Assembly (NCBI GenBank): GCA_038826135.1
Contig: JAWBON010000016.1
Span: 1 to 24,424, forward strand
Reading direction: 5' to 3'
From: Candidatus Odinarchaeota archaeon
GTDB lineage: Archaea; Asgardarchaeota; Odinarchaeia; Odinarchaeales; Odinarchaeaceae
DNA: 24,424 nt
How positions within the stretch are numbered: position 1 is the stretch's first letter; every line of letters starts with the position of its first letter. The position numbers and the translations under genes were made by a program. Shown one piece after another: positions 2,439 to 21,687 of this stretch. Below the pieces are notes generated by a model. That model searched no databases, was not told the DNA's origin, and saw nothing but the letters and a program-made list of their open reading frames with translations.

Positions 2439-5360
2439 ATGTCAAGTGAAAGAGTACCCGTAAATAAAATTAATGATAACATCTGGCAGATACCTAAAAC
2501 ATATAAGGATTGTATGCGCGTTCCCGGCATACTCTACGCTGACGAAGACCTCTTAGAACATATTAAACAAGATCTCACACTAGAGCAACTAGCTAATGTA
2601 GCATGTCTGCCAGGCGTTCTCAAACACGCTCTAGCCATGCCAGACGCTCATCAAGGATACGGTTTCCCAATAGGCGGAGTAGCTGCAACAGACTACTCTA
2701 CAGGAGTTATCTCACCAGGAGGCGTGGGATATGATATTAACTGCCTTAGTCCAAATTCAAGGATACTTACAGAAAACGGTTATTGGGTTAGACTAGAAGA
2801 ATTACCTGGAAAAGCTAGGGCTGAAAGAATAAAAATTTATAATGATAGGGAAGGGCATAACGATTCAACTCCGATTCTATTTATTTCAACAAGAAATATA
2901 CATAGAAGTGAAGCCGCTTTAAAAATCACAACACAATGTGGCAGAAATATTGAAGGAAGCTCAGACCACCCTATTTTAACTTCAAAAGGCTATAAAATAA
3001 TGAGAGAAATTAACAAAAACGATTATCTGGTTGTAAACCCGTTTGAAGGAGTTGAATATGAAGAGAAAGATTTAATCATATTAGATGAAAATGATTTCAA
3101 AGATTACGATAAACAAATAATCAAATATCTTAAGGAAAGGGATTTAATCCCTTTAAAAATGAACGATCCGAGGATAGGCGTTATTGCAAGAATTTTAGGT
3201 TTCTCGTTAGGAGATGGGTCAATAGTTAAATCTGAAAATAGAAGAGAACGCTATATCACCTATTTTTATGCTCGTAAAAGCGAATTAGAAGAAGTATCGA
3301 AAGACCTAGAAAAATTAAGGATTAAAGCATCTAAAATCTACTCTAGGAGCAGGCTGATTTGTATAAAAACCCCCTGGGGTAAAATGTATAAATCTAACTG
3401 CACGGATAACACTATAAAAATTTCTTCCAATGCATTCAGCTTATTATTAAATAAACTTGGTATGCCCATAGGCCGAAAAACTGAACATGAATATGGAGTA
3501 CCAGGATGGATAGTTAAATCACCTTTATGGGTTAAGAGAAACTTTCTGGCAGGTTTATTCGGAGCTGATGGCAGTGTAATCAATTTTAAATCCTATACGC
3601 CGCTACCAATTAATTTTACTCAATCAAGGAAAAAAGAGTTTGAACCAAATCTTCTAGCGTTCTTAAACGAAATTAAGAATATTTTAGAAGACTTCGGTGT
3701 TAAAAGCATTATCTACCATATTAAATCGGTGAAAGGGAGAGTAACTTATAGAATTGCTATAGAAGGTGAAGAAAACCTGAGATGTTTTTTAGCTAAAATC
3801 AATTACGAATACTCACCTGATAAAAAACAGGAAGGGTTAATTGCTTTAGAATATCTGAAAAGAAAAGCAGATGTTCTAAAAATTAGGAAAATTTCAGCGG
3901 AGAAAGCTAAAAAAATATACGAAGAAACTGGGAGCGTCAAAAAATCTTTCAATCAGGTTGCTGGAAAATACGTTAATAGAAGATTTATTGAAAGAGCAAT
4001 ACACGAAGGGGATAAAAAGATCAGAGTATCTCAAGAATTCCTTTCATTCAAAGAATTTCGAGAAAAATTTAGCTTAAAAGGTGGTTTCATATTAGACAGG
4101 GTAATAAGAATTCAAAAAATTAAACCCGTTTACACCAGTTTTTATGATATAGGTGTTCCCCACCCATCCCATAACTTCATCGCTAATGGAATAATCGTTC
4201 ACAATTGTGGGGTAAGGGTTGTGTCAACTAATCTTAAAGTTGATGAGGTTCGACCTAGGGTAAATGAGTTGGTTGATCTGCTTTTTAGGGAGATTCCCAG
4301 CGGGCTTGCGAGTAAGGGTAAGATTAGAGTGTCTGTTGGTGAGTTGAATGATGTTATTGCTGGTGGTGCTAAGTGGGCTGTTGAACACGGTTACGGTTGG
4401 CATGAGGATTTGAAGCATTGTGAGGAGAATGGTTGTATGAAGACAGCTGACCCGGAGGCGATTTCACCGAAAGCTAAGGAGCGTGGTAAAAGTCAGATTG
4501 GTAGTTTGGGGAGTGGTAATCATTTTCTAGAAGTTCAATATGTGGAGAGGATTTTTAACCCTCAGGTGGCTAAAAGATTCGGTATCAATGAGACTGGGCA
4601 GGTTCTTGTAATGATTCACACCGGCTCTAGGGGTTTAGGTCATGAGACATGTTCCGATTATCTTAGATTAATGGAGATGGCTATTAAAAAATTTAATATT
4701 AAGCTGCCTGACAGGGAGCTTGCGTGTGCTCCTAATAATAGTGATGAAGCTGAAAAATATTTTAAAGCTATGAGCGGGGCTGCTAATTTCGCATGGTGTA
4801 ACCGTCAGCTTATAACTCACTGGACTCGTGAATCTTTTAAACATGTTTTTAAAACAGATCCTGAGGATCTTGGTATGAACACGATATATGATGTAGCGCA
4901 TAACATAGCTAAACTAGAGGAGCATGATATTGACGGTAAAAAGGTTAAATGCTATGTTCATAGAAAGGGGGCTACAAGAGCCTTCCCTCCAGGTCACCCT
5001 GACATACCAGCTGATTATAGGGATATAGGGCAGCCTGTTATTTTACCTGGAACGATGGGTACTTCAAGTTATATATTGGTTGGCACCCCTAAGTCGATGG
5101 AGATAAGCTTCGGTTCAACCGCTCATGGAGCAGGGCGGCTTCTCAGTAGGATAAAGGCTGTGAAAAGCTTTTCAGCGCATGATGTTAAAGCTAAGCTTTC
5201 AACTAAGAATATTGTTATAAGAGCGGCTGATCTGAAAGTGATAAGTGAAGAGGCACCTGGCGCGTACAAGGATATTGACAAGGTTGCCAAGATCTCGAAC
5301 GCTGTAGGTATAGCCACTCTTGTAGCTCAGATGAAGCCTATAGGTGTTACTAAAGGTTAA
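2439..5360 (+). CDS. rtcB: RNA-splicing ligase RtcB precursor (973 aa; about 485 aa after intein removal)
   Basis: MPDAHQGYGFPIGGV, GGVGYDIN|CG split by an intein, GSLGSGNHFLE, HTGSRG, YDVAHN, HRKGATRA, PGTMG, STAHGAGR, EEAPGAYK. Confidence 0.96.
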   Translation: MSSERVPVNKINDNIWQIPKTYKDCMRVPGILYADEDLLEHIKQDLTLEQLANVACLPGVLKHALAMPDAHQGYGFPIGGVAATDYSTGVISPGGVGYDINCLSPNSRILTENGYWVRLEELPGKARAERIKIYNDREGHNDSTPILFISTRNIHRSEAALKITTQCGRNIEGSSDHPILTSKGYKIMREINKNDYLVVNPFEGVEYEEKDLIILDENDFKDYDKQIIKYLKERDLIPLKMNDPRIGVIARILGFSLGDGSIVKSENRRERYITYFYARKSELEEVSKDLEKLRIKASKIYSRSRLICIKTPWGKMYKSNCTDNTIKISSNAFSLLLNKLGMPIGRKTEHEYGVPGWIVKSPLWVKRNFLAGLFGADGSVINFKSYTPLPINFTQSRKKEFEPNLLAFLNEIKNILEDFGVKSIIYHIKSVKGRVTYRIAIEGEENLRCFLAKINYEYSPDKKQEGLIALEYLKRKADVLKIRKISAEKAKKIYEETGSVKKSFNQVAGKYVNRRFIERAIHEGDKKIRVSQEFLSFKEFREKFSLKGGFILDRVIRIQKIKPVYTSFYDIGVPHPSHNFIANGIIVHNCGVRVVSTNLKVDEVRPRVNELVDLLFREIPSGLASKGKIRVSVGELNDVIAGGAKWAVEHGYGWHEDLKHCEENGCMKTADPEAISPKAKERGKSQIGSLGSGNHFLEVQYVERIFNPQVAKRFGINETGQVLVMIHTGSRGLGHETCSDYLRLMEMAIKKFNIKLPDRELACAPNNSDEAEKYFKAMSGAANFAWCNRQLITHWTRESFKHVFKTDPEDLGMNTIYDVAHNIAKLEEHDIDGKKVKCYVHRKGATRAFPPGHPDIPADYRDIGQPVILPGTMGTSSYILVGTPKSMEISFGSTAHGAGRLLSRIKAVKSFSAHDVKAKLSTKNIVIRAADLKVISEEAPGAYKDIDKVAKISNAVGIATLVAQMKPIGVTKG
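2742..4205 (+). mobile_element. Intein (488 aa) with LAGLIDADG homing endonuclease in rtcB
   Basis: Begins CLSPNSRILT (TGC at 2742) and ends HNFIANGIIVHN (AAT at 4203-4205), followed by Cys+1 (TGT 4206). Block B SDHPILT, two dodecapeptide motifs RILGFSLGDGS and FLAGLFGADGS, block F FYDIGV. Confidence 0.94.
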
Positions 5361-9173: not shown

Positions 9174-9620
9174 GTGAGATGGACTGGAATGTATGAGGGT
9201 AAAGTTGTAAAGAAAGGTGAGATTTCATTTCAACAAGCTCTTAACATTGTTAGAGAGAAAGGCATGGCTAACACAGGCGCGATCGCCTCTTTTATAGGGG
9301 TTGTCAGACCGACGTCTAAAACAGGTAGACGTGTTAAAAGCCTTTATATAGAGGCTTGGCGGGATGCTGCTAACACTTCACTTAGCAGAATAGCCCGTGA
9401 ACTCTCTGAAAAAAAAGGCGTGTCCAGTGTTCTAATATATCATTTTGAAGGAGAGTTGAAAGTAGGGGATGAAATCGTGTACGTTATTGTTTCAGGAGAT
9501 CACAGGGAGAATATTCTCCCAGTTTTAACAGAGGCTGTTGAGAGATATAAACATGAATCTGAGATCTGGAAGAAAGAGGTTTTTGAAAACGGTGACGCTA
9601 ACTGGGTTGAAGAAGTTTAA
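9174..9620 (+). CDS. moaE: Molybdopterin synthase catalytic subunit MoaE (start may be ATG 9189)
   Basis: GAIASFIGVVR, HFEGELKVGDEIVYVIVSGDHR, K...IWKKE..ENG..WV. Confidence 0.88.
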   Translation: MRWTGMYEGKVVKKGEISFQQALNIVREKGMANTGAIASFIGVVRPTSKTGRRVKSLYIEAWRDAANTSLSRIARELSEKKGVSSVLIYHFEGELKVGDEIVYVIVSGDHRENILPVLTEAVERYKHESEIWKKEVFENGDANWVEEV

Positions 9621-9638
9621 ATGGTGCGAGGGGTGGGA

Positions 9639-9655
9639 TTCTCGCACATAAGTGT
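9639..9655 (-). other. tRNA intron, T-loop position 59/60 (17 nt)
   Basis: Full BHB fold: GTGGG/CCCAC outer helix, TTCG/CGAG central helix, AAA and AAT bulges, CAC-TTAT-GTG inner hairpin. Cutting after nt 2 of each bulge restores TTCGAAT. Confidence 0.93.
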
Positions 9656-9672
9656 TTCGAACCCACGAAAGT

Positions 9673-9689
9673 TTGTGCGAAATATTTCT
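9673..9689 (-). other. tRNA intron in the long variable arm (17 nt)
   Basis: GTGC/GCAC central helix, AGA and AAA bulges, GAA-ATAT-TTC inner hairpin; outer helix poor (relaxed BHB). Excision restores a Leu-type variable hairpin. Confidence 0.85.
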
Positions 9690-9764
9690 CTGCACTAAAG
9701 GATCTTGAGTCCTTCCCCGTTGACCGCTTGGGTACCCTCGCAAGTAGAATATAGATGTGAATTC

Positions 9765-9780
9765 ATATTAAATTTTTTGC
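9765..9780 (-). promoter_or_regulatory. BRE/TATA promoter of tRNA-Leu
   Basis: Minus strand GCAAAAAA-TTTAATAT, with the TATA element 24-31 nt upstream of the tRNA 5' G. Confidence 0.6.
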
Positions 9781-9795
9781 GTGAAAATCTTCTAG

Positions 9796-10104
9796 CTATA
9801 ACTTAGCTTCACCCGTCTTATTTTTCTCAGTATTTAATCCCTCTATTTTTGATTGAAATTCTAAAAGAAGTTTTGTTAAAGGATGGTTTTCCACAAGATA
9901 TATTACCCGCATAAGATTACCGACTTTAATTTCACCTACCACACCAAGCCTTATAAAATTGTCAATAAGCCTCCCAACCGTTGAATTAGCTAAAGAAGTT
10001 CGCCTAGCAACCTCCGATAAATTCATAAGACTGCCCCGGGTTTTGAGCATAAACTGGAGTAGTTTAACCTGACCCGCGTCGCCGAATATATCTATAAACT
10101 TCAT
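9796..10104 (-). CDS. Winged helix-turn-helix DNA-binding protein
   Basis: NLSEVARRTSLANSTVGRLIDNFIRLGVV HTH followed by a beta-wing. SD GAGAGGG. Confidence 0.75.
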   Translation of the reverse strand: MKFIDIFGDAGQVKLLQFMLKTRGSLMNLSEVARRTSLANSTVGRLIDNFIRLGVVGEIKVGNLMRVIYLVENHPLTKLLLEFQSKIEGLNTEKNKTGEAKL

Positions 10105-21580: not shown

Positions 21581-21687
21581 GGGACCGTAGCTCAGCTTGG
21601 TTAGAGCGCACGGCTGATAACCGTGATGGTAAATATAATTATTTACCTCGGTACAGGTCCGGGGTCCAAATCCCCGCGGTCCCACCA
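21581..21687 (+). tRNA. tRNA-Ile(GAT) with 29-nt intron at 43/44, CCA encoded
   Basis: GGGACCG/CGGTCCC acceptor, GCTC/GAGC D-stem, CACGG-CTGATAA-CCGTG anticodon arm, AGGTC variable loop after intron removal, CGGGG-TCCAAAT-CCCCG T-arm. Confidence 0.93.
21626..21654 (+). other. tRNA intron at 43/44 (29 nt)
   Basis: ACCG/CGGT central helix, TGA and ACA bulges, GGTAAAT/ATTTACC inner stem. Cutting after nt 2 of each bulge gives CCGTG-AGGTC. Confidence 0.88.

Follow-up and report, generated by a model that had tools for sequence, protein, structure and literature searches.

The question raised by this locus is whether a stretch of 120 nt that standard tRNA finders pass over encodes a working tRNA-Leu(CAA), and whether both of the segments that interrupt its cloverleaf, one in the long variable arm and one in the T-loop, are introns. 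In the window (the whole stretch of DNA analysed, 24,424 nt), the reverse complement of 9622-9741 reads as a 120-nt pre-tRNA, and its coordinates agree exactly with a minus-strand gene running from 9741 to 9622. We consider it very probable that this is a functional two-intron tRNA-Leu(CAA) of Odinarchaeia, spliced by EndA and RtcB. The features at the locus are as follows, with precursor positions ("pre") in brackets.

9622..9741, minus strand: pre-tRNA-Leu(CAA) gene, 120 nt with encoded CCA (hand parse, ARAGORN after double excision, orthologues in five genomes)
9690..9741, minus strand: exon 1 (pre 1-52); acceptor 5' strand, D arm, anticodon arm, and 5' strand and loop of the variable arm (U-AGU-GCAG)
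9705..9707, minus strand: anticodon CAA (pre 35-37) in the loop CUCAAGA (parse and ARAGORN)
9673..9689, minus strand: variable-arm intron, 17 nt (pre 53-69), relaxed HBh' motif (bulge-helix-bulge check (4,3,0), RNAalifold, covariation, orthologue lengths)
9656..9672, minus strand: exon 2 (pre 70-86); variable-arm 3' strand ACU, then UUC, T-stem 5' strand and T-loop nucleotides 54-59
9639..9655, minus strand: T-loop intron, 17 nt (pre 87-103), position 59/60, strict hBHBh' motif (bulge-helix-bulge check (4,3,5))
9622..9638, minus strand: exon 3 (pre 104-120); U60, T-stem 3' strand, acceptor 3' strand, A73 and CCA
9765..9772, minus strand: candidate archaeal TATA box TTTAATAT at -31 to -24, with an A-rich, BRE-like stretch before it (sequence reading)

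Anatomy of the gene and its two introns

The parse of the precursor gives a 7-bp acceptor stem (pre 1-7/110-116), a 3-bp D stem (10-12/24-26), a 5-bp anticodon stem (28-32/40-44) and a 5-bp T stem (76-80/105-109), with discriminator A117 (equivalent to A73) followed by the encoded CCA. As befits a class II tRNA-Leu, the 7-nt anticodon loop carries a Leu anticodon between U33 and a purine at 37, and the discriminator base is A73. Two stretches fall outside the cloverleaf, a variable region of 31 nt, where about 14 nt are expected for class II, and a "T-loop" of 24 nt. The gene is flanked by open reading frames at 9174-9620 (plus strand) and 9796-10104 (minus strand); a 72-aa frame at 9525-9743 (minus strand) spans the whole tRNA gene and is almost certainly spurious. 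The candidate TATA box is also kept in two same-genus orthologues, and a scan of the window for bacterial sigma-70 promoters and terminators, a model irrelevant to an archaeal host, gave no match.

ARAGORN run on the whole window missed the gene, as did the Rfam tRNA model at its gathering score; under a permissive Rfam scan the sole match to it was misaligned and reached 21.6 bits, below the 29-bit cut-off. The warning of the sequence-only reading that standard scanners may miss this gene is thus accurate for ARAGORN and for the Rfam covariance model. Neither the unspliced sequence nor either singly spliced form was called a tRNA by ARAGORN, but the doubly spliced form was called tRNA-Leu(caa), 86 bases, so that excision of both inserts restores a canonical cloverleaf. 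The gene, its CAA anticodon, and the position and 17-nt length of each intron, all of which had been claimed from the letters, are borne out by the parse, ARAGORN and the bulge-helix-bulge (BHB) check, and the 86-nt class II product by the ARAGORN call on the doubly spliced form.

Elsewhere in the window, a tRNA-Ile(GAU) gene at 21581-21684 (plus strand) carries an insert of about 27-30 nt in its variable-loop region. It scores 58.4 bits with Rfam when the insert is treated as an insertion, and the best borders found by the BHB check give just 3 of 4 central-helix pairs.

We give BHB scores as (central helix, inner helix, outer helix), with motifs that have both flanking helices termed strict and those with one termed relaxed, and we place each cut after the second base of a 3-nt bulge. 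Both introns have a central helix with 4/4 pairs, two 3-nt bulges on opposite strands and an inner helix. At the T-loop, the central helix is UUCG/CGAG (pre 81-84/98-101), the bulges are AA|A and AA|U, the inner helix is CAC/GUG and the outer helix is the 5-bp T stem itself, which makes the motif strict; the standard cut leaves the T-loop UUCGAAU and hence defines position 59/60. In the variable arm, the central helix is GUGC/GCAC (pre 47-50/64-67; window 9692-9695 and 9675-9678), the bulges are AG|A and AA|A and the inner helix is GAA/UUC, with no outer helix, so that the motif is a relaxed HBh'. Cutting here yields U-AGU-GCAG-ACU-UUC, an arm of 3 bp with a 4-nt loop, and places the intron at the junction of the loop and the arm's 3' strand. 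The contrast drawn earlier between a complete motif in the T-loop and a relaxed one in the variable arm therefore holds, at (4,3,5) versus (4,3,0). When the inserts were shuffled with their borders fixed (200,000 trials each), the motif returned in 0.19% of trials for the T-loop and in 0.03% for the variable arm. Both sets of borders can shift without any effect on the mature sequence, by 2 nt at the T-loop and by 1 nt in the variable arm (A53 = A70).

The T-loop intron was removed in all nine of the double deletions that ARAGORN accepted. It is present in three genomes of the genus (the host included), with one loop substitution among them, and absent from the sister-family orthologues, whose T-loop is a plain UUCAAGU. 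Position 59/60 is a listed site of non-canonical tRNA introns (PMC4090602), and at least five tRNA genes of the host genome have T-loop introns there with strict motifs.

Four further tRNA-like T arms with strict-BHB 59/60 introns of 16-26 nt lie at C5:24334, C8:17677, C15:6045 and C29:12195 of the host assembly; three of these are absent from the Rfam list and the fourth scores 20.7 bits, from which it follows that T-loop introns conceal several tRNA genes of this genome. A sister-family tRNA-Leu(UAA) (L051, genome G005) also has a strict-BHB 59/60 intron, of 24 nt, which the genus-level UAA gene lacks. The family pattern is thus the reverse of that for Leu(CAA), and the intron sequences of the two isoacceptors are unrelated; together these observations suggest, from the gene sequences, that the 59/60 introns of Leu(UAA) and Leu(CAA) were gained separately.

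The borders of the variable-arm intron need evidence beyond the motif. A scan with relaxed BHB criteria found 39 candidate motifs within the 120-nt gene and 25-78 single-excision variants in the other Leu genes, and ARAGORN also accepts the 83- and 85-nt products of neighbouring variable-arm cuts. The combination of a BHB motif with an ARAGORN call was dropped as proof of these borders after ARAGORN passed wrong products ("tRNA-Thr", "tRNA-???"). Relaxed BHB criteria alone are weak evidence, and since 39 such motifs arise by chance and ARAGORN tolerates neighbouring cuts, the variable-arm borders rest on relatives.

The variable-arm site among relatives

A DNA search of 40 related genomes recovered full-length orthologues in two genomes of the same genus and three of a sister family in the same order. 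Both introns are retained in the former and the variable-arm intron only in the latter. Precursor positions 1-45 are identical in all six orthologues (host included), exon 3 is invariant in all six from the T-stem 3' strand to the CCA, and the exons differ in compensated variable-arm changes and one loop base, and nowhere else. The variable-arm insert lies at the same place in 6/6, at lengths of 17, 18 and 19 nt in the genus versus 26, 26 and 27 nt in the sister family, with unrelated inner hairpins, and RNAalifold recovered its central helix, 3-nt 5' bulge and inner helix unprompted.

The substitutions that separate the two families fall on pairs. At column 48 the genus has U where the sister family has C, and this base covaries both with the intron base opposite it in the BHB central helix (A to G; alignment column 76) and with the exon base opposite it in the mature arm stem (pre 70, A to G; alignment column 80). 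The pair 48:70 is accordingly UA in one family versus CG in the other, with both sides changed, and the pair 46:72 (alignment columns 46:82) passes from AU in the genus to GC in the sister family. Such covariation of 46:72 and 48:70 across the insert implies that its flanks must pair after excision. In alignment A1, standard pairs fill 99.5% of cells under the precursor structure and 100% under the mature cloverleaf; sliding the 3' partners by 1-3 columns lowers this to 31-65%. The set comprises six related orthologues from two families, so the covariation amounts to few independent events; its form is what would be expected if the splicing-competent fold and the mature arm were both under selection.

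Insert-free relatives provide the other half of the argument. In other Asgard families, three Leu(CAA) genes lack the variable-arm intron and are interrupted at the canonical 37/38 site, and in two of these (L010 and L013) the variable region is U-CUC-GUAG-GAG-UUC, 14 nt in a 1+3+4+3+3 layout, which is the layout predicted for the spliced Leu(CAA) arm.

The sequence-only reading had called a variable-arm intron especially unusual, but it is not peculiar to this gene: of the 28 Leu genes of six Odinarchaeales genomes, 18 have one at this position (CAA 6, CAG 6, UAA 3, UAG 3), and two other Asgard families share it. All the same-site introns start directly after a GYAG loop, have AG|A as first bulge and a 4/4 central helix, and leave a 3-bp mature arm. 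Their central helices covary with the sequence of each arm (GUGC/GCAC, GUGU/GCAU, GCGU/GCGY, CUGU/GCAG, CCGU/GCGG). All 18 genes preserve the 3-nt bulges and the 4-bp helix, whereas the apical part is unconstrained in sequence and measures anywhere from 10 to 20 nt; here, as in the six orthologues, the motif is maintained while the intron body drifts. A 4/4 central helix at the shared site was not found in Leu(GAG), genus-level Leu(UAG) or sister-family Leu(UAA), which have inserts elsewhere in the arm or imperfect helices. Beyond the order, the arrangement recurs in at least two further Asgard families among the 400 genomes of the phylum covered by a pattern scan, in Leu(CAG) of family f7 and Leu(CAA) of family f3 (loci L058, L059, L078 and L079 between them), each with a large D-region insert in addition. 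The count is a lower bound since the pattern fixes the T-arm sequence; surrounding sequence was inspected for the f3, f7, G235 and G300 matches, and those in family f9 were excluded on the matched sequences as false positives, being tRNA-Ser D arms. Judged from these genes, the variable-arm intron is a lineage-wide trait of tRNA-Leu.

The host genome, which is 93% complete and in which just 29 tRNAs reach the Rfam cut-off, covers the five Leu anticodons with a single gene apiece, and all five genes have inserts. Its tRNA-Leu(UAG) (C75:2840-3021, L036) is 182 nt long and apparently has four inserts, a pair in each of the anticodon and variable arms; the second variable-arm motif reaches only 3/4 central-helix pairs. 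The sister-family orthologue is 105-108 nt and has only the variable-arm intron at the shared site. Its tRNA-Leu(GAG) (C3:7312-7443, L035) combines a canonical 37/38 intron with a 26-nt variable-arm insert in the arm's 5' strand, a site unlike that of the other Leu genes, and the anticodon stem would have to contribute its 3' strand to the best central helix for that insert.

Alternatively, one could envision that the variable-arm insert is retained, which would give an unusually long variable region of 31 nt containing a bulged hairpin of 8 bp, and that only the T-loop insert is an intron. The hairpin 47-50/64-67 and the inner helix are present in both the minimum-free-energy and the consensus folds, covariation of the hairpin is likewise expected of a retained structural arm, and ARAGORN tolerates several variable-arm lengths. 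However, ARAGORN rejects the form from which the T-loop intron alone has been removed, retention would leave 8 unpaired bases ahead of the T stem, 46:72 and 48:70 covary across the insert, the apex varies over 10-20 nt while bulges and helix persist in 18 genes, and insert-free relatives have exactly the 14-nt arm that splicing is predicted to leave; we regard retention as very unlikely. Were the intron real but bounded differently, for example by excision of 18 or 20 nt to give an 85- or 83-nt tRNA with a 2-bp arm, the alternative relaxed motifs (cuts 52/70 and 50/70) would supply the cuts, and ARAGORN does call the products tRNA-Leu(caa). Such borders are most unlikely to be used, given that they lose A70, which covariation identifies as the exon-pair partner of position 48, that they break the 1+3+4+3+3 layout common to the Leu paralogues and the insert-free relatives, and that their inner helices are weaker (0-1 bp).

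The silence of ARAGORN and Rfam would also fit a decaying or non-functional tRNA pseudogene with junk for inserts, and tRNA-Leu(UAA) could in principle read UUG codons in its place. It is nevertheless barely credible that exons 100% conserved in two families save for compensated changes, a TATA box kept within the genus and compensatory substitutions that preserve the BHB geometry should belong to a dead gene; moreover, no second Leu(CAA)-like locus was found in the host genome (93% complete) or in the closed genome G002, which makes this the sole Leu(CAA) gene found, and it completes the five-anticodon Leu set.

Splicing enzymes and the proposed pathway

The two-intron reading supposes an endonuclease that cuts both motifs and a ligase that joins the exons. 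The host genome encodes two EndA paralogues. The catalytic alpha subunit is broken across two contig ends (C48:1-420 and C72:2-274; L003 and L001), which overlap by 42 identical residues and so represent one gene rather than a split gene. An intact 188-aa orthologue of it aligns end to end with the alpha subunit of Aeropyrum pernix (3P1Z_B, E 1e-43), gapless through the Crenarchaea-specific loop (CSL) GFFGKPVGIRKPKV, lysine included, and it retains the Tyr, His and Lys motifs. The second paralogue (185 aa) is closest to the EndA of M. jannaschii and reads NEEASKYLV where the latter has DKEHSVYLV, with Ala in place of the catalytic His; since that histidine is missing, it is presumably a structural beta subunit. 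Homology thus supports assignment of the host enzyme to the (alpha-beta)2 type with an L1 loop, predicted to be able to cut relaxed, non-canonical motifs, and classification of the subunits as a catalytic alpha with the Crenarchaea-specific loop and a beta without the catalytic His lends support to the broad-specificity endonuclease that had been postulated for this lineage. An (alpha-beta)2 EndA with the L1 loop was assigned to Asgard archaea, and tied to a broad substrate range, by Kaneta et al. (PMC5829648).

The expected exon-joining enzyme lies in the window itself:

2586..5357, plus strand: RtcB RNA ligase gene (PF01139 in two pieces within one 995-aa open frame)

The two pieces match model positions 1-50 and 49-426. 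The gene is 4 kb from the tRNA gene, and its frame is split by an insert of about 470 aa that is most likely an intein.

From these components we infer the following course of transcription, cleavage, ligation and charging. Transcription from the TATA box about 25 nt upstream would give the 120-nt precursor, which would fold into a cloverleaf with two independent BHB motifs. A heterotetrameric (alpha-beta)2 EndA, with a Crenarchaea-type L1 loop in its catalytic subunit, would cut after the second base of each bulge and free two 17-nt introns, one from T-loop position 59/60 (strict) and one from the junction of the variable-arm loop and 3' strand (relaxed HBh'); RtcB would then join the three exons into the 86-nt class II tRNA, which would be charged with leucine. 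G47 and U48 would pair with the intron before splicing and with C71 and A70 after it, so forming the 3-bp variable arm.

Under this scheme the variable-arm intron would keep the arm unformed until EndA and RtcB have acted. The variable arm is the main identity element for LeuRS in archaea, and Soma 1999 reportedly placed LeuRS identity in Haloferax in loop bases A47c and G47d. Occurrence of the intron in four isoacceptors, in both Odinarchaeales families and in at least two further Asgard families is the ground for a more speculative reading, in which the intron 3' of the GYAG loop is an old Asgard feature kept by selection, with splicing licensing aminoacylation. We think this doubtful; if it were true, selection acting on both states would have left its mark in the covariation of base 48 with its intron and exon partners.

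Whatever the age of the intron, the analysis recovers a tRNA gene invisible to ARAGORN and to the Rfam covariance model, extends heavy non-canonical interruption of tRNA genes to Odinarchaeia, the Asgard class with the smallest genomes, and puts on record an intron site that is conserved within the long variable arm of class II tRNAs. The 120-nt RNA, with a strict and a relaxed motif side by side, would also make a clean natural pair of substrates for measuring the specificity of an Asgard EndA.

Comparison with known systems

Multiple non-canonical introns in one tRNA gene had been put down by the sequence-only reading mainly to Thermoproteales, and genes of this kind with non-canonical BHB motifs are indeed described from Thermoproteales, other Crenarchaeota and Aigarchaeota (Sugahara 2008, as cited in PMC4090602 and PMC3082918). 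The present host, however, does not belong to Thermoproteales: the identical 5' half of the gene is found in Candidatus Odinarchaeota/Promethearchaeota MAGs, and abundant non-canonical introns have already been published for Asgard archaea. Like the crenarchaeal and aigarchaeal genes, the Leu(CAA) gene has at least two short introns of the protein-spliced kind at sites other than 37/38 and mixes a strict hBHBh' with a relaxed motif (HBh' or hBH in those genes), and its host is predicted to share their (alpha-beta)2 EndA with a Crenarchaea-specific loop; unlike them, it comes from Odinarchaeia, an Asgard rather than a TACK lineage.

At the level of single sites, the pre-tRNAs of ARMAN-2 reportedly offer a match to the T-loop intron, with BHB introns at T-loop 59/60 in which the T stem serves as outer helix (Fujishima 2011). 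The position is the same as in Odinarchaeia Leu(CAA), although ARMAN-2 belongs to another superphylum and has an epsilon2 EndA.

For the variable-arm intron, the printed precedents that we found are a variable-region intron in a class I tRNA, the tRNA-Lys of A. pernix (PMC4307357), a variable-loop intron in a class I tRNA of Thermofilum pendens (Kjems 1989, as cited in PMC3978253) and "V-arm" introns mentioned for Caldiarchaeum (PMC3082918). These are in class I tRNAs or are given as bare "V-arm", whereas the Leu(CAA) intron lies inside the long-arm hairpin of a class II tRNA.

Close counterparts of the system are also known from the same phylum. Abundant multiple non-canonical tRNA introns and an (alpha-beta)2 EndA with the L1 loop are on record for Asgard archaea (PMC5829648; PMC11291895; bioRxiv 10.64898/2026.10.13.758758); one of these studies found 92-95% of the tRNA genes of Atabeyarchaeia and Freyarchaeia to be interrupted and lists a Leu(CAA) with three introns (PMC11291895). 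The 2026 preprint states that tRNAscan-SE misses 30% of intervening sequences, and records "Class II variable-arm insertions" that were left out of a figure and stand unanalysed there; its main text does not name Odinarchaeia, and Tamarit 2022 mentions neither tRNAs nor introns. In the published Asgard texts that we consulted we found no description of the exact variable-arm site, of its recurrence in four isoacceptors and at least four families, or of the covariation of base 48 with two partners. The kind of system and its occurrence in Asgard archaea are therefore already known (2018, 2024 and the 2026 preprint), and no new mechanism is involved; what is added is the Odinarchaeia case, a precise and conserved variable-arm site, and covariation of base 48 with two partners. 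The published Asgard cases resemble the present one in that most of their tRNA genes have introns, often several and non-canonical, that many are missed by annotators, and that two EndA paralogues with the L1 loop are reported; they differ from it in that those papers centre on classes other than Odinarchaeia.
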